DNA from: Myxococcota bacterium
GTDB lineage: Bacteria; Myxococcota_A; UBA796; CAJQPC01
Direction: 5' to 3'
DNA length: 64,000 nucleotides
Assembly (NCBI GenBank): GCA_036229005.1
Contig: JAZAMN010000021.1
Span: 1-64,000, forward strand
Shown here: positions 18,448-59,617 of the stretch, one piece after another
Position numbering within the stretch: the first letter of the stretch is position 1
How the letters are laid out: each line of letters opens with the position of its first letter
Notes under the pieces: model-generated
The model's database searches: none
What the model saw: the letters and a program-made list of their open reading frames with translations, nothing else
Told to the model about the DNA's origin: nothing
Translations under genes and position numbers: made by a program

Positions 18448-19500
18448 TCAGGGGAGCTGCAGCTCAAAGCTCCGGGTGGCCACACTGCGCCCATTGACCA
18501 GCAGCTCCACGCGCTGGGTGCCTGGATAGTGCTTGCGCACGGTCACCGCCTTGATGGGGTGGCGCTTGCGGAGCTGGATGGGGCCGGCCTGGGCATTCCA
18601 GGTGCGCCACTTGAACACCTTGCGGCCAAAGCTCCCGTCCTTGCGCAGCAGGTGCAGGGCGAAGTCCACGACCAACAGGGTGTCGTGGGGCAGGTTGGCG
18701 TCCAGGGCCAGCTCCAGGTGCTCGCCTTCGGTCAGGGCCTCGGTGGCCTGGAAGTCGAGCGCGGCCAGGGTGACCTCGCCGGCGCCCAGCAGCGACAGGG
18801 CTTGGGGGTGCCCCGCCTTGATGAGGGTGCGGAGGGCGTGCTTGAGCAGCCGCTCCCTCTTCGGCTCCCACCACTGCTCGGCCAGCCCCAGCACCAGCTC
18901 CGGGTGGTCCTTGGACAGGTCGTTCAGGTTGTTCGCGACGCTGCGGCGCACGTACTCGGCGGGGTCATCCTTGAGGGCGTCCAGGATGCGCAGGATGGGC
19001 GCGGGCTCGGCCTGGAGGGCGCGGAGGCGTTGGCCCCAGGGAAGCCGGGTCCTGCACCCCTCGGACGCCAGCCTGCGGCGGTGCTCGTCGTCGCTGTCGG
19101 TCCAGGCCAGGAGCTGCTGCATGGCCAGCTCGGGGTGCGCCTGGATGTAGGGACGCACCGCGAACTCCGCGGAGAAGAGGTGGGTGAGGGTGCCCAGGGT
19201 CTCCAGCGCCGGCTGGGGGTGGCTCAGCGCGTGGCGCTCGACCACGGTGAAGGTGGGCCAGGCGGGCAGGCCGGTGATCGGCGGGGGCTGGAACGCGGCG
19301 GCCTGGAGGGCCTCGAGCATCGCGGGTACGGGCGCGGGGAGCTGGGCGCGCAGGGCATCGGCCAGGTGGACCACGCGGTCCTTGAGCTCCATGGCGTCCA
19401 GGGGGGCGGCGGTGGCCTGGACCCAGGCGGAGTCGAGGTTCAGGCGGGCGGCCCAGTCGGCGACGAGCGCGGGGCTGACTTCTTCTTTGAAGGGAGGCAT
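18448..19500 (-). CDS. DNA alkylation repair protein (AlkC/AlkD-like HEAT-repeat glycosylase)
   Basis: FSAEFAVRPY, RRLASEGCRTRLPW, YVRRSVANNLNDLSKDHP, KHALRTL; start at ATG 19500. Confidence 0.9.
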   Translation of the reverse strand: MPPFKEEVSPALVADWAARLNLDSAWVQATAAPLDAMELKDRVVHLADALRAQLPAPVPAMLEALQAAAFQPPPITGLPAWPTFTVVERHALSHPQPALETLGTLTHLFSAEFAVRPYIQAHPELAMQQLLAWTDSDDEHRRRLASEGCRTRLPWGQRLRALQAEPAPILRILDALKDDPAEYVRRSVANNLNDLSKDHPELVLGLAEQWWEPKRERLLKHALRTLIKAGHPQALSLLGAGEVTLAALDFQATEALTEGEHLELALDANLPHDTLLVVDFALHLLRKDGSFGRKVFKWRTWNAQAGPIQLRKRHPIKAVTVRKHYPGTQRVELLVNGRSVATRSFELQLP

Positions 19501-19540
19501 GGGCGGGAGTGTATTGGCTTGGAGGGGCGGCTGGGTGACG

Positions 19541-19772
19541 CAACCTGGGCTGATTGCACCCGTGTGTGGCGCAACCCGTACTGAGTGCACCGAGCGTCTG
19601 CCCAACCTGGGCCGAATGCACCCGCGTGTGGCGCAACCCGTACTGAGTGCACCGCAGGGAGGGGGCGGCGGCCTCAGAAGGCGGGCCTTTGGTGCACTCG
19701 GCGGGGGTTGAGTCCGCCTTTGGTGCACTCGGTCGGGGTTGAGTCCGCCTTTGGTGCACTCGGTCGGGGTTG
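19541..19772. repeat. Inverted tandem repeat array with 31-bp period (4 forward + 3 reverse units) downstream of the HUH transposase
   Basis: 20-bp core of type CAACCCGTACTGAGTGCACC (variable centre) starts at 19541, 19572, 19603, 19634. The reverse-complement-like core GGTGCACTCGGTCGGGGTTG starts at 19691, 19722, 19753. Confidence 0.92.
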
Positions 19773-19779
19773 AGCGCAC

Positions 19780-20583
19780 TCAGCCGCCGTGTCGCCGGCG
19801 CCAACGCACGCTTCGGCTCCAGTGACCGGGGCCCGAAGGGATGCCGGGGAAGCGCGGGTCCCCAGCGAGGCGCTCGACCAGCGCGACGGCGGGGGACTCG
19901 CCTCTGGGGCAGCGCTGGACCGTCCAGCGGCTGACCTGCACGAAGTCGGCGATCTCCACCGGGCTGGCCGCAGTCAGTGCCAGGGCGCTGCGGATCCAGA
20001 GCTGGCGTGCGGGGCCGCGCGTCCGCAGGTCTACGAGCGGGACGCGCGTCGCGGCGGAGACCGCGGCCTGGAGATCCAGGAGGCTCGGGGTCGCCTGGGC
20101 GATGGGGAGCAGGGTGCCGTCGACCTGAACGCTGGGGTCCGCGCTGGTGTAGCGGTGGAGAGCGTGGGGGTCGGAGGCCCGGCGGCGCGCTGGAGAGAGG
20201 GTCAGCCCGACGGCGTCCCGGTACGTCGACCAGGGCCACTCCAGCGGGTCGGACACCATCCCCGCTCGGCAGGGGTTGAGGTGGATGTAGCGGGTGTCGC
20301 GCCGGCGCTTCTGGGCGTCGGAGGCGACGGTGGGGGTGGGGAGCGGCTCCAGCAGGCGCCCGCGCAGCCCCGACTCCCAATGCAGAGCGCGGCTGTGCCC
20401 GCCCAACACCCTGCCCAGGAGCAGGCGTACATCCCGCTCGTGCTGCAGGTGCACGTGGTTGGGCATCAGGCAGAGCGCCTCCATTCCGGGGATGGCGCGG
20501 GTGATGCGGGTCCAGAGGGCGGCGGCCTGCTCCCAGCTCTCAAAGAGCAGGCCGTGGCGGGTTCTCGCGACGTGGTGGTACAT
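19780..20583 (-). CDS. REP-associated tyrosine (Y1 HUH) transposase-like protein with a C-terminal HTH
   Basis: YHHVAR, CLMPNHVHL (HUH), RYIHLNPCRAGMV..PLEWPWSTY (catalytic Tyr); C-terminal ARQL...SPVEIADFVQVSRWTVQR HTH. ATG 20583 preferred over TTG 20595. Confidence 0.9.
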   Translation of the reverse strand: MYHHVARTRHGLLFESWEQAAALWTRITRAIPGMEALCLMPNHVHLQHERDVRLLLGRVLGGHSRALHWESGLRGRLLEPLPTPTVASDAQKRRRDTRYIHLNPCRAGMVSDPLEWPWSTYRDAVGLTLSPARRRASDPHALHRYTSADPSVQVDGTLLPIAQATPSLLDLQAAVSAATRVPLVDLRTRGPARQLWIRSALALTAASPVEIADFVQVSRWTVQRCPRGESPAVALVERLAGDPRFPGIPSGPGHWSRSVRWRRRHGG

Positions 20584-20594
20584 GGCCGTCGCCA

Positions 20595-20611
20595 ATGCAC
20601 CCGCCGTGCCA
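20595..20611 (-). promoter_or_regulatory. Sigma-54-like -24/-12 element upstream of the HUH transposase
   Basis: Minus strand TGGCACGGCGGGTGCAT: TGGCACG with exact GG-N10-GC spacing, ending 11 nt before ATG 20583. Confidence 0.6.
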
Positions 20612-20624
20612 GCGCGCAGAGCCC

Positions 20625-20682
20625 GACGCCCAGGGGATCTGGGGTGTCAGGGGTGTCAGCCCTTCGACACCCCGGGTGTCAG
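20625..20682. repeat. Cluster of GGGTGTCAG short repeats with inverted partners (REP-like) upstream of the HUH transposase
   Basis: GGGTGTCAG occurs three times (20642, 20651, 20674); complementary GACGCCC at 20625 and GACACCC at 20666 allow hairpins. Confidence 0.7.
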
Positions 20683-23114
20683 ATGCAGGTGCCGCTGGCG
20701 CAAGTGAAGGTCTCGCCGTCCTCGTAGTTGCCCGTGATCGTGGCCCCGCCGGTGTAGATCTGAAAGTCCACGGGGCTGTTGTCGTCGCCGCTGCCGGAGA
20801 CCCCAAAGTCGCAGGAGGTGGCGGTGAACTGGCCCTGGTAGATGGTCAGTGCCCCCGTGGCGGTGAAGACCGTGCTGATGTTGCGGTGGAAGCCGGCGGC
20901 GTTGCTGCTCCCATCGCAGACCAGACTCCCCGCGTTGAAGTACCCGGCGCCGTACTGACTGGCGGTGTTGTCGTCCACGTGGGTTCCGTCCAGCTCCACG
21001 GTGCTGGAGGCGCCGTAGATGCCGCCAGCGAGCGAGCCTCCATCGTTGCCGCTGAGCTCCGAGTCCGTGAGGGTCAGGGTCCCGGAGTAGACGTAGATGC
21101 CTCCCCCGCGAGAGCCGCTGGTGTTGCTGGACAAGCTGCTGTCGCTGATCTCCAGGGTGCCCCAGCCCTGGTCGATTGCGCCGCCATAGGTGCTGGCGCT
21201 CGCTCCGCTGACGTCGGCGTCTTCGATCGTGAGGGTGGAGGACCAGGCGTAGAGCCACCCGCCACGCCCGGAGCTCCCGCCGCTGGAGCTCACGTCGCTG
21301 AGGCTCCCGGTGGCCCCGTCGGCGTAGATCGCCCCGCCGTAGTTGCGGCCATAGGCACCGCTCTGCTCGAGCCCGTCCACCGAGAAGCTGCTGTTGTAGA
21401 AGAAGAGATCCCCGCCGCGGTTGCTGGAGTTGCTGTCCATCGAGAGGTCGGTGGCGTCGAGCTCGCAGCCGTTGAAGGCCAGCGCGCCGCCAAAGTTCCC
21501 GGTGTTGCTGTTGAACGCCATCGCGTCCAGCTCGACGGTGGCGGCGACGTCACAGACCAGGCCGCCGGCTGCGTCCTGTCCGAACAGGAGCGTGTCGGTG
21601 CTGCCGTTCTCGATGCTCAGGTTGCTCAGGCTCACGGTGGTGGAGGCGGTGTCGACCTCGACGACCGTGTTCAGGCCGGCGCCGTCCAGCACGACATCGC
21701 TGGGGGTGTCGCCGTAGCCGACCACGTCGATGTCCGCGGAGAGCGTCAGGTCCACATACCAGGTGCCCTCGCACACCGAGAGGGTGCCCGCGCTGCTGTA
21801 GGCCAGGGCGGCCGGCGCGCTGCTGCTGCCGCTCCAGTCCGCCGTCACGTCGCTGCTCCCGCTGCTGTCGGTCCAGGTGACCATCCCCACCTCGGAGGTG
21901 CTGCTGTCGCAGTCGGTGTCGGCGCCGTCGCAGATCTCCGTCGCGCCGGGGTTCACCTGTGCGTCGCTGTCGTCGCAGTCGGTGTCGTCGCTGACGCTGC
22001 CGCTGGGCTGGGTGCAGGCGGTGGTGGTGGTGCTGGCGTCGCCGTAGCCGTCCCCGTCGCTGTCCTGGTACCAGGTGGCGGCGTCCGCGCTGGTGGCCGG
22101 GTCCACGCTGCCGTCGCAGTCGTTGTCGACGCTGTCACACACCTCTGTCGCATCTGGATTCACGCTGCCGTCCGCGTCGTCGCAGTCGCTGGCGTCGCTC
22201 ACGGCGCCCGAGGGCTGCGTGCAGGCCTGCTGGGGGGCGCTCGGGTCTCCAAAGCCGTCTTCATCGCTGTCGCTGTACCAGGTCAGGGCGTCCGCGCTGG
22301 TGCCCGGGTCCACGCTGCCGTCGCAGTCGTTGTCGACGCTGTCGCAGACCTCGGTGGCCGCTGGGTTCACGGCGGCGGCCAGGTCGTCGCAGTCGCTGCT
22401 GTCGCTCACGTAGATCTCAGGCTGCTCGCAGGCCGACACGCTGGCGTCGGGGTCCCCGTAGCCGTCGTCGTCCCGGTCCCGGTACCAGGTGCTCGCGTCG
22501 GCGGCAGTAGACGGGTCGGTCTGGCCGTCGCAGTCGTTGTCCTGGCCGTCGCAGACCTCGGTCGCGTCGGGGTTCACCGCGGCGTCCTCGTCGTCGCAGT
22601 CTGTCGCATCTTCCCCGTAGGAGGGGGGCGCACTGCACGCCGTGACGCTCAGGTCCGCGCGGCCGAAGCCGTCGCCGTCCAGGTCGGCGTACCAGGTGCC
22701 TGCATCCAGCGCGTCCACCGGGTCCACGCTGCCGTCGCAGTCGTTGTCCAGTCCGTCGCAGATCTCAACGCCAATGGGGCTGGCCGCGGTGTGGGCGTCG
22801 TCGCAGTCCATGTCGTTGTCGGCGCTGTCCGCAGGTTGGCTGCAGGCCTCGAGGGGCACCCCGGGATCCCCGAAGCCGTCGCCGTCGATGTCCGCGAACC
22901 ACAGGCCGCCGGTGCTGCTGTCCCAGTCCGCGTCGGCTTCGTCCAGGTCTCCGTCGCAGTCGTTGTCCAGGCCATCACAGACCTCGGAGTTGCCGGGGAA
23001 GCGCGCCGGGTCCTGGTCGTCGCAGTCCTCGCTGGCGACCACCCCGTCGCCGTCCTGGTCGACGGGCTCGGGCGGGTTGCGGGTGCAGGCGAGGGTCAGG
23101 AGCAAGGCGAACAT
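20679..23114 (-). CDS. Lipoprotein with 6 MopE-like repeats and a C-terminal right-handed beta-helix (GGA[IL] repeats)
   Basis: MFALLLTLAC lipobox; six Cys/Asp repeats of about 60 aa; GGAL/GGAIY/GGGIY repeats in a Ser-rich C-terminal half. Confidence 0.85.
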   Translation of the reverse strand: MFALLLTLACTRNPPEPVDQDGDGVVASEDCDDQDPARFPGNSEVCDGLDNDCDGDLDEADADWDSSTGGLWFADIDGDGFGDPGVPLEACSQPADSADNDMDCDDAHTAASPIGVEICDGLDNDCDGSVDPVDALDAGTWYADLDGDGFGRADLSVTACSAPPSYGEDATDCDDEDAAVNPDATEVCDGQDNDCDGQTDPSTAADASTWYRDRDDDGYGDPDASVSACEQPEIYVSDSSDCDDLAAAVNPAATEVCDSVDNDCDGSVDPGTSADALTWYSDSDEDGFGDPSAPQQACTQPSGAVSDASDCDDADGSVNPDATEVCDSVDNDCDGSVDPATSADAATWYQDSDGDGYGDASTTTTACTQPSGSVSDDTDCDDSDAQVNPGATEICDGADTDCDSSTSEVGMVTWTDSSGSSDVTADWSGSSSAPAALAYSSAGTLSVCEGTWYVDLTLSADIDVVGYGDTPSDVVLDGAGLNTVVEVDTASTTVSLSNLSIENGSTDTLLFGQDAAGGLVCDVAATVELDAMAFNSNTGNFGGALAFNGCELDATDLSMDSNSSNRGGDLFFYNSSFSVDGLEQSGAYGRNYGGAIYADGATGSLSDVSSSGGSSGRGGWLYAWSSTLTIEDADVSGASASTYGGAIDQGWGTLEISDSSLSSNTSGSRGGGIYVYSGTLTLTDSELSGNDGGSLAGGIYGASSTVELDGTHVDDNTASQYGAGYFNAGSLVCDGSSNAAGFHRNISTVFTATGALTIYQGQFTATSCDFGVSGSGDDNSPVDFQIYTGGATITGNYEDGETFTCASGTCI

Positions 23115-23295
23115 GGGGTCTCCGGGGTTCCTCTCCAAGCTACGGCGCGCACCTGCTCGCGTCTGTTTCTCTTGATTTCAGGCCCGCGCTCTCTGTCTGG
23201 AGGAGGAGGGGAGCGAGGGGCGCTCGGGGCTCCAGGGTTCACCGCGACACACCCCGCTAAGGCTCGATTAGACTGGGCTCGGCAGGGCTTGCGAG

Positions 23296-36873: not shown

Positions 36874-38198
36874 TGGCCGGGCCGCGCTTGGGGGTGTCGG
36901 GGCGCGTGCTGGCCAGCGCGGTGCTCTCGGCGCTGGTGGGCACCCTGCTGGTCGCCTTGACCCTGACGGCCAGCCAGCAGCTCATGCGGGACAGCATGAT
37001 CCGGGGCATGAGCAGCCACGCCGACCTGGGCGCCTGTGAGGCGGCGCCGGAGCACTGGGGCGCCAACATGTCGGGCTTCCAGGTGTTCGCCTACGACGCC
37101 CAGGGGAACAGCCGGAACCCCCAGGCGCCGCCGCTGGAGCCCAGCCTGCTTCTGGCGGAGCTGGACGGGGAGCTGGTCGCCCTGCCGGATCAGGGGGACC
37201 AGCGGGAGCGCTTTGGGGTGCGGGTGCGGAGCGACGGCCCCTGCGCCATCCTGCGCCTGACCCTTACGCCGCCCCACGCCCGGGAGGAGCTGGACCCGCG
37301 CACGGTGCTGATCGGCGTGGCCACCATCCTGGCCATGACCCTGGTGGGCCTGGCGAGCTGGGGGCTGGTGGTGCGGCCCATGCAGCGGCGCATCGAGGGC
37401 ATCGCCGACAGCGCGGGCAGCGTGGGGCACCAGGACTTCGAGCCGCCGCCCCCCCAGCAGGAGGATGACCTGGGCACCATCGCCCGGGTCCTGGGCGAGA
37501 GCCACCAGCGCATCCAGACGGACCGCCAGGAGCTGATCGCCCGCCACAAGGCTCTGGAGAAGCACCTGGCCGGAATCGCCCACGACCTGCGCACGCCGCT
37601 GGCCAGCATGCAGCTCTCGCTGGAGGCCCTGCTCGAAGACGGCCACGACGCCCAGGGGGCCCTGTCGGACATGGTCTACCTGTCCTCGCTGGTGGAGAAC
37701 CTGCATCAGGGCGTGCGGCTGCGGCACGGGCTCTCGGCGGTGGACGGACAGGTGGAGCTCGGCGAGCTCGTCGAGCGCCTGGGTCGGCGCTTCTCCCTCA
37801 TCGGAAAGCACTCCGGGATCGAGGTCGCGGTGAACACCCCGGAGCGCCCGGTCCCCGTGCTCTGTGCGCCCGCTTTGGCCGAGCGGGCTCTGGCCAACCT
37901 GGTGCAGAACGCCGTCGCCCACAACCGCCCCGGGGGCCACGTCGCGGTGCTGCTGGACCTGCACGGCGACCGCTTCGAGCTGCGCGTGCTGGACGACGGC
38001 CCCGGCCTCCCCGCCGACGTGATGGCCTCTCTGGAGCTGCCCACCTTCAGCGAAGACCAGGCGCGCCAGCGGGGCCCCGGACTGGGTCTGCTCATCACCC
38101 GCGAGATCGCCCACCGCGCGGGCTGGGAGATCGCCTGGGAGCCCCAGGAGGACGGCCTCTGCGTGCGCATCGAGGGCGCGCTGGCCCCCCCGGCGTGA
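36873..38198 (+). CDS. Sensor histidine kinase (2 TM, HAMP)
   Basis: AHDLRTPL H-box, NLVQNA, DDGPG, GLGL; TGATG coupling to the regulator. Confidence 0.93.
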   Translation: MAGPRLGVSGRVLASAVLSALVGTLLVALTLTASQQLMRDSMIRGMSSHADLGACEAAPEHWGANMSGFQVFAYDAQGNSRNPQAPPLEPSLLLAELDGELVALPDQGDQRERFGVRVRSDGPCAILRLTLTPPHAREELDPRTVLIGVATILAMTLVGLASWGLVVRPMQRRIEGIADSAGSVGHQDFEPPPPQQEDDLGTIARVLGESHQRIQTDRQELIARHKALEKHLAGIAHDLRTPLASMQLSLEALLEDGHDAQGALSDMVYLSSLVENLHQGVRLRHGLSAVDGQVELGELVERLGRRFSLIGKHSGIEVAVNTPERPVPVLCAPALAERALANLVQNAVAHNRPGGHVAVLLDLHGDRFELRVLDDGPGLPADVMASLELPTFSEDQARQRGPGLGLLITREIAHRAGWEIAWEPQEDGLCVRIEGALAPPA

Positions 38199-38321
38199 CC
38201 AGAGCCTGATCCAGAGCGCCCCGGGGTCCCCCCGCGCTTGACCGCCGCCCGATCCGCGCACAGGGTTCGGCGGGCCCCGGCTCCCGGCGGCCTTTGTCTT
38301 GCACTGCACTTGGGGCGCATC

Positions 38322-59325: not shown

Positions 59326-59617
59326 GTGGCTACGCGGGCCCAATGAGCGGGTGGGGGAGGCTACGGCCGCTGGATGAGCGGTCCTCTGAGGCTAGGGCCC
59401 ACCAGTGATCGTTTTGGCCACCGATCCGGCCCTCTGGGGAGGGTTTTGGGCCGGTTCTGGCCTGGATCCGGCCCCAAGGGGGCACATTCGGTGCCCTCAG
59501 CGCTCACCGAGACCCCGTAGCCTCGGCGAGGCGCTCACTCAGGTGCCGTAGCCACCCCCGTGCGCTCACTCAGGTGCCGTAGCCACGCCCGCCCGCTCAC
59601 TCAGACCGGGTAGCCGC
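59326..59617. repeat. Second inverted tandem repeat array with 31-bp period (3 forward + 4 reverse units), between convergent genes
   Basis: 24-bp core G[TA]GGCTA[CG]...TGA[GT]CG starts at 59326, 59357, 59388; the inverse CGCTCAC...GTAGCC starts at 59501, 59532, 59563, 59594. Confidence 0.92.

Follow-up and report, generated by a model that had tools for sequence, protein, structure and literature searches.

The window, by which we mean the whole stretch of 64,000 nucleotides analysed here, carries on its minus strand, at 19780..20583, a gene whose product is predicted to be a REP transposase (RAYT, REP-associated tyrosine transposase) acting as a nuclease on single-stranded DNA. The host is probably a marine member of the Myxococcota. 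An element built of two converging arms of repeated units lies directly downstream of the gene, and a cluster of half-sites with a predicted sigma54 promoter lies upstream. The features discussed below are the following.

19538..19653, plus strand: left arm of the family-A element, four two-box units at 31 bp, two variants alternating
19654..19690, no strand: central spacer of 37 bp; the inner units are 60 bp apart start to start, a helically quantised value
19691..19775, minus strand: right arm, made of three inverted units that are nearly identical; 4 nt separate its outer end from the stop codon of the RAYT
19780..20583, minus strand: RAYT/TnpA_Y1 gene, 267 aa, motifs NHVH and YIHLNP (subclass 2.1)
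19852..20088, minus strand: C-terminal domain, aa 166-244, with a predicted DnaA-domain-IV-like fold
19912..19935, minus strand: candidate recognition helix, aa 217-224, inside the C-terminal domain
20287..20289, minus strand: predicted catalytic tyrosine Y99 within YIHLNP, at least 90% conserved and aligned with the Y---NP motif of 4er8
20449..20457, minus strand: HUH motif H43-V44-H45; H43 and H45 are invariant across 55 aligned homologs
20596..20611, minus strand: predicted sigma54 -24/-12 promoter TGGCACG-N4-GTGCA, GG 27 nt before the ATG
20641..20683, minus strand: GGGTGTCAG cluster, three half-sites, two of them forming the palindrome TGTCG-N6-TGACA at 20654-20669; predicted upstream activator site
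59327..59616, no strand: second two-arm element in the window; it belongs to family E, whose partner paralog is on contig C27, and adjoins no HUH gene

The enzyme and the array beside it

The likely start codon of the window RAYT is the ATG at 20583. A profile of 55 homologs matches the E. coli TnpA_REP structure 4er8 (E 6.5e-7), which comes top by both sequence profile and fold, and an AlphaFold model of the protein (pLDDT 95.7) aligns with 4er8 over 135 residues (Z 12.5, rmsd 3.2). Residues 166-244 align with domain IV of DnaA (1j1v: Z 9.9, rmsd 2.2, 77 residues aligned; 3pvp: Z 9.9). The first-pass annotation had proposed a RAYT-like HUH protein with an extra C-terminal HTH, and both proposals are supported, the first by H43-V-H45, Y99 and the profile and fold match to 4er8, the second by a helical domain with the predicted fold of DnaA domain IV. 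Among family models, NCBIfam NF047646 (REP-associated tyrosine transposase) matches the window RAYT with E 2.7e-8 and 33.8 bits, below its 80-bit cut-off; a Pfam search of the same protein gave no match, and some family members give weak Pfam HTH matches.

The Y1 HUH (TnpA_Y1) superfamily is recognisable by the HuH motif, a single predicted catalytic tyrosine and the TnpA fold, which are present, as are the signatures of subclass 2.1 or group 1 RAYTs (NHVH, Y[IV]HLNP and a C-terminal Bac_DnaA_C/HTH-type domain). At the position of the W[EQ]/FQ motif the family consensus has W and the window RAYT has L. Membership of IS200/IS605 is argued against by the motif Y---NP (not Y---Q) and by paralogs in the same genome that are only 53-68% identical to the window RAYT. 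Among the SNPs listed for this gene in other strains, six of eight are silent. Between the HUH and Tyr motifs, at 20321-20440, contigs of runs X2-X4 carry a diverged 118-nt patch of equal length, which looks like an allele replacement.

The array unit has a pair of conserved boxes, GCGCAACC-N6-GARTGCACC, after which come 8 bases that vary. The seven units described in the first-pass annotation, four in one orientation and three inverted at an exact 31-bp period, are all in place: its left-arm positions (19541, 19572, 19603 and 19634) are CAACC starts 3 nt inside units that begin at 19538, 19569, 19600 and 19631, and the inverted units occupy 19691-19713, 19722-19744 and 19753-19775. TRF reports period 31 on both arms (19535-19653 at 70%, 19685-19774 at 96%). 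The alternation of two variants along the left arm, with its 62-bp super-period, is equally clear, 52-nt copies being 94% identical at lag 62 and 63% identical at lag 31. The units are not hairpins themselves, as had been said: folded as single-stranded DNA, family-A units have means of -3.8/-3.6 kcal/mol against -3.4/-3.7 for shuffles, which is no better than the shuffles, and the units of all five families found in this genome fold like shuffles. The contig of run X2 has one additional 31-bp unit in the right arm. A CRISPR reading of the array was rejected on architecture, the 6- and 8-nt variable parts being copied within an arm. Among plasmids there was no match, and among viral contigs only 8, all short and distant.

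Element families in the genome and at homologous loci

Motif scans of the genome counted 811 units. These fall into 140 clusters, and 125 of the clusters have at least two units (family E 47, B 31, D 20, C 14, A 13). Two convergent arms are seen in 116 of these 125 clusters and divergent arms in none, and one two-box frame is common to all five families. Units on the same strand are exactly 31 bp apart in 534 of 555 spacings (62 bp in another 11), so the 31-bp period is not a matter of chance. The first-pass annotation had tied the array to the window gene and had allowed that arrays found genome-wide with no tie to HUH genes would speak against it. The array is not private to this gene: the 125 clusters are spread through the genome, mostly far from any HUH gene; the tie to HUH genes nevertheless holds family by family.

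This pairing can be read from the five RAYT paralogs that the genome encodes. The window paralog has family A beside it, the paralog on C32 has family B, that on C52 family C and that on C24 family D, and the C27 paralog has a two-unit family-E remnant upstream. A copy of the family lies within 300 bp of four of the five paralogs, compared with a 3% chance that a random 800-bp gene is that close to an element. The array upstream of the C27 paralog (L031; G000:C27, ~38100-38286) is interrupted after two units, at the contig end, by sequence that reads like the end of an IS transposase gene. Mixed elements also occur: the one at G000:C65:55502-55708 joins a family-A left arm to a B-like right arm, and elements with mixed units are found at G000 C30:105780 and C57:24804.

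Copying of whole elements is seen in two sister pairs with 92% and 87% centre identity and unrelated flanks. Four of six close sister pairs have common flanks, which suggests segmental duplication, and 91 of 103 elements have less than 0.7 centre identity to their nearest neighbour. When four runs were compared with a 19-kb stretch holding four elements, two of which were not bridged, there was no empty site among the rows listed. Three congeners have neither gene nor array at the window site; their neighbouring sequence differs, so that ends could not be read there. Of 102 elements classified by crude gene calls, 51 have convergent genes on their two sides and 6 have divergent ones, against a background of about 20% each, and many abut stop codons.

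The spacing of the elements follows the DNA helix. The 116 central gaps cluster near 39, 50, 60, 70, 81, 91, 101, 112, 122, 132, 143 and 153 bp (R=0.95 at 10.4 bp), and when they are reduced to 14 family-by-class values R is still 0.94, which was reached in none of 200,000 simulations; the central gaps are whole helical turns. The suggestion that 31 bp, as about three turns, places the units on one face of the DNA is therefore supported and extends to the gap between the arms. In the centres of family E, A/T dinucleotides recur with a 10.3-bp phase (power 0.77; the highest value in shuffles was 0.14). IHF-like sites, scored against the IHF consensus, occur in 12 of 18 long non-E centres, against a shuffle mean of 0.7. 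Identity at the variable positions is 75% inside an arm, 43% among elements of the same family and 32% between the arms, and as the last value is below the second, pairing of the arms is not conserved. Homology between elements stops sharply at the outer box. Together, the geometry points to recognition of double-stranded DNA by a protein on one face rather than to pairing of the arms. At the N6 positions of the elements in this genome, G/C skew agrees between the arms on the same strand (rho 0.46), which means that elements have a G-rich and a C-rich strand.

Of 41 genomes, 18 match the RAYT, four of the 18 being weak or off-clade, with up to 18 matches per genome. Search of genome contigs with the single protein found nothing and with an alignment found loci, three of which were dropped as duplicates. 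From 70 homolog loci we excluded L017 and L018 (no tblastn match) and L015, L016, L028, L048, L067 and L070 (off-clade or truncated), leaving 62 for the element search; L058, L063, L065 and L066 have no reliable start, so that promoter counts rest on 58 homologs. The RAYT tree largely groups by host genus or family.

The check on homolog flanks that the first-pass annotation had proposed came out in its favour as far as the period is concerned. Two-arm elements were detected de novo at 41 of the 62 loci, or at 37 of 57 once the window genome is set aside, compared with 2/57 and 3/30 in controls, those being at other periods. The period was 31 bp in 35 and 32 bp in 9 of 47 detections, so that 31 or 32 bp is kept in 44 of 47, while the unit sequences are other than those of the window family. 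These flanking unit families are dispersed in their own genomes (G034, G008, G021, G039, G027) and stand at background level in the RAYT-less kin searched; within genus g1 the unit counts are 421, 9, 36 and 0, the last in G003, which has no RAYT match. No element was detected at the remaining 21 of the 62 loci, among them a whole deep subclade (L059, L061, L062, L064, L065, L066), whose genes are flanked by different, palindromic repeats and not by two-arm 31-bp arrays.

For co-variation of the unit sequence with the HTH, which had also been put forward as a check, a match appeared post hoc. When the helix has Arg at position 3 and Ser/Thr at position 7, the inner box ends in AAC (4/4 against 0/35), and Arg at position 3 with Tyr/His goes with an inner box ending GAC (7/11 against 1/28); these correspondences recur in separate clades, but kin are not independent and the automatic unit register was wrong for about 10 of the 41 loci. 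The second planned pattern, which concerned the outer box and linked Arg at helix position 7 to CG, fell short of significance (p=0.06).

The predicted promoter and its regulon

The cluster upstream of the gene had been read as a second repeat class, and is better described as the putative activator site of a sigma54-type promoter common to comEC, comM, radC and ssb. A layout with GG at -24 and TGC at -12 is that of sigma54 promoters (PMC3844500). The upstream region has the sequence features of such a promoter with an enhancer and is a predicted promoter of this kind; its GG, 27 nt before the ATG, implies a nearly leaderless mRNA. TGGCACG-N4-TGCW occurs within 60 nt upstream in 58/58 homologs with a usable start. 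The GG stands at -26 to -28 in 51 of these (49 of them with no Shine-Dalgarno sequence) and at -37 to -42 in the other seven, all of which have a Shine-Dalgarno sequence. As the promoter matrix was trained on these homolog loci, the evidence lies in the position and not in the score. Farther upstream sits TGTCG-N6-CGACA, in many cases as two copies some 21 bp apart (49/58). The stretch from palindrome to promoter has an IHF-like site in only 6/58 homologs (1.0 in shuffles), a weak signal. Among distant clade members 12/20 have a sigma54-type site, whereas other subclass-2.1-like loci have it in 1/56. The genome itself encodes an rpoN that scores over the cut-off and gives 23 strong PF00158 activator matches. 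Upstream of the cluster, at 20679-23138, lies a gene for an 819-aa protein with six MopE-type repeats (PF11617), the stop codon of which overlaps a half-site of the palindrome cluster.

The same pair of palindrome and promoter is found elsewhere in the genome. Matrices trained only on other genomes found 15 pairs where 2.4 were expected, and with matrices that included loci of this genome 14 pairs score 33-62, the next being 18.9. These 14 precede the five RAYTs, a RAYT-like gene, comEC, comM followed by recA, radC, ssb, an integron-like integrase and three loci with unclear targets, namely L071 (G000:C59:6740, a strong pair with no obvious leaderless gene), L074 (G000:C54:11297, a strong pair before a 536-aa protein with no family match) and L077 (G000:C14:87313, a strong pair with a possible short ORF). 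The RAYT-like gene (L078:374-1162; G000:C57, promoter 36534) has the same promoter and paired palindromes and has neither HUH nor Tyr; its profile match is weak (probability 61%), and it is possibly a dead RAYT homolog retained as a DNA-binding regulator.

Across the order, this genome counted and genomes in which no RAYT was found included, a sigma54-type site precedes comM in 29/30, radC in 27/30 and comEC in 10/11; together with the palindrome it does so in 11/30, 11/30 and 3/11. The background is 215/2500 for the site and 4/2500 with the palindrome, and the MBL control gave 0/18. To judge from the layout common to them, comEC, comM, radC and ssb appear to be under shared control, and the data point to sigma54 control of DNA-uptake genes across this order, for which we found no precedent in the open-access literature. 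In G003 and G014, two genomes without a RAYT match, the pair stands before comM or radC, so a host activator is the likelier binder of the palindrome. PilR is not supported in this role, as pilin genes are absent from the 14 promoters. At the thresholds used, no pair was found at comEA, dprA or the pilin genes of this genome, so the regulon is not a full competence set.

The genes comEC, comM and radC have been named together as competence genes in Legionella (PMC12378983). The set described here resembles such competence regulons in that the core genes comEC, comM, radC and ssb have one promoter layout; it differs in its predicted sigma54 and enhancer control, in including RAYTs and an integrase, and in leaving comEA, dprA and the pilins with no pair.

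A phased RAYT system and its possible triggers

The reading that we favour, and consider somewhat probable, is a REP/RAYT-type system in which a HUH protein is paired with a helix-phased element family and has a sigma54 promoter in common with DNA-uptake genes, the elements being copied, likely upon induction of competence, by way of single-stranded DNA. Pairing, geometry and promoter layout are legible in the sequence. Because the promoter is common to DNA-uptake genes, the RAYT is likely switched on during competence and likely spreads its elements during DNA uptake.

The steps might run as follows. A host activator would bind the paired TGTCG-N6-CGACA and turn on the sigma54 promoter, as it is predicted to do at comEC, comM(-recA), radC and ssb. 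The C-terminal domain may then bind the 9-bp inner box on double-stranded DNA, one site per three turns, and the A/T-phased centre, sometimes with an IHF-like site, would bend and so bring both arms together on the same face. One strand would be nicked by the HUH domain at the outer box or close to it, which is the point where homology stops, and the nicked strand could be transferred into single-stranded DNA, for example incoming transforming DNA, mostly beside gene ends. Later the arms would gain or lose whole 31-bp units locally. A two-step spread has been proposed for BIMEs (PMC3333891).

More tentatively, and here we would not go as far as even odds, the protein could be a domesticated HUH nuclease within a sigma54 competence programme, its DnaA-type domain reading phased arrays by a simple helix code and transforming DNA being used to spread elements or to start recombination. 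If true, this would give RAYTs both a host role and an on-switch.

The main rival to a competence trigger is a trigger by DNA stress, which we regard as unlikely. It would keep the same protein-element pairing and take the sigma54 regulon as a response to DNA damage or single-strand stress, with the enzyme acting on lagging-strand or repair single-stranded DNA. The presence in the set of ssb, radC, comM followed by recA, and the integron-like integrase is consistent with this, as is the place of comEA, dprA and the pilins outside it, and the lagging strand is an important source of single-stranded DNA for Y1 enzymes (PMC6006769). Against it stand the membership of comEC, with a sigma54-type site in 10 of 11 genomes, and the grouping of comEC, comM and radC as competence genes in Legionella.

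The arrays might instead be binding or bending platforms for a host nucleoid protein, lengthened by slippage, beside a RAYT that does not act on them now. Helical phasing, A/T-phased centres and IHF-like sites all fit architectural DNA, and recent sister copies are few; we nonetheless think this improbable, for each paralog has one family and the units change with the paralog even inside one genome, the unit families were not found in the RAYT-less kin searched, bases at the unit ends turn up together with helix residues in separate clades, and the HUH and Tyr residues are conserved. Still less probable is that the elements act mainly as RNA hairpins at gene ends, as terminators or mRNA stabilisers in the manner of co-opted REPs. 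Their excess between convergent genes and beside stop codons would suit such a role, but at variable positions the two arms agree less than do elements of the same family, gaps of whole turns are nothing that a hairpin requires, and Rfam gave no match in 19300-20900 at E up to 1.

It is just as improbable that gene and flanks form an autonomous IS-like unit (TIRtron), with the GGGTGTC cluster as a left end bound by the enzyme's own HTH: there are up to 18 matches in a genome, the site is empty in three congeners and GGGGTGTC resembles GGGGWSAS of TIRYT ends (PMC3733652), yet comM or radC has the same pair of palindrome and promoter before it in genomes without a RAYT match, the upstream motif is not mirrored downstream, the paralogs are diverged, the tree largely follows the host and no plasmid match was found.

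Among known systems the nearest by protein is TnpA_Y1 subclass 2.1 (Quentin 2018, PMC6006769), which corresponds to the group 1 RAYTs of Bertels and to most TIRYTs (PMC3733652). The window RAYT is like its members in NHVH and Y[IV]HLNP, in length, in its Bac_DnaA_C-related C-terminal HTH and in having several diverged copies per genome (PMC6006769). That paper reports no REP-like sequences near subclass 2.1 genes, and the largest RAYT class has thus been described as free of REPs; REPINs are given only for groups 2 and 3 (10.1101/2021.07.10.451892), and in 10.1101/119735 and 10.1101/2021.07.10.451892 group 1 is treated as lacking REPINs and RAYT function as open. Unlike described subclass 2.1, the paralogs here have dispersed, phased element families, and unlike other subclass-2.1-like loci they have a sigma54-type promoter. 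The two-sided TIR definition of a TIRtron or TIRYT (PMC3733652) failed, the upstream motif being unmirrored and recurring at non-RAYT promoters.

Likeness to E. coli TnpA_REP with its BIMEs and to REPIN-RAYT systems (4er8; PMC3333891, PMC8266576) extends from the HUH fold and one repeat family per enzyme to inverted pairs in intergenic DNA, tandem copies that resemble one another inside a locus and whose number varies between strains, and an IHF site in some linkers, as in BIME-1. As in a REPtron, the gene has its cognate repeats in its flanks, and inverted pairs of them are scattered through the genome. The canonical REPtron of groups 2 and 3 is nevertheless rejected on its definition of a hairpin with a 5' GTAG (PMC8266576): the units here are not hairpins and have no 5' GTAG foot, and GTAG is found only in families C and E, on the outward-reading strand. 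Each arm is, moreover, a direct tandem of 31-bp two-box units with helix-locked spacing, and the enzyme has an extra predicted double-strand DNA-binding domain that TnpA_REP does not.

We found no account of phased arrays or of sigma54 control of RAYTs in the text of open-access papers, and passages of PMC3686654 and PMC3333781 have nothing on a promoter. The reasons for which RAYTs are retained, the timing of their expression and the way in which REPs spread are said to be open questions (10.1101/119735, 10.1101/2021.07.10.451892, PMC8266576). For part of the largest RAYT class, this locus supplies a defined DNA partner together with a predicted binding domain and a trigger that can be tested. 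With its five paralogs and as many unit families, a single genome offers a matrix for specificity, and swaps of specificity are predicted by the helix-to-box pattern.

The C-terminal domain, lastly, can be set beside DnaA domain IV on DnaA boxes (1j1v, 3pvp), with which it has a predicted fold in common (Z 9.9, 77-79 residues). With its 9 bp, the inner box bears a loose resemblance to the DnaA box TT[AT]TNCACA, as quoted in PMC6006769. Unlike in DnaA, the domain here is fused to a nuclease, has no AAA+ domain beside it, and has a predicted target that differs between paralogs.
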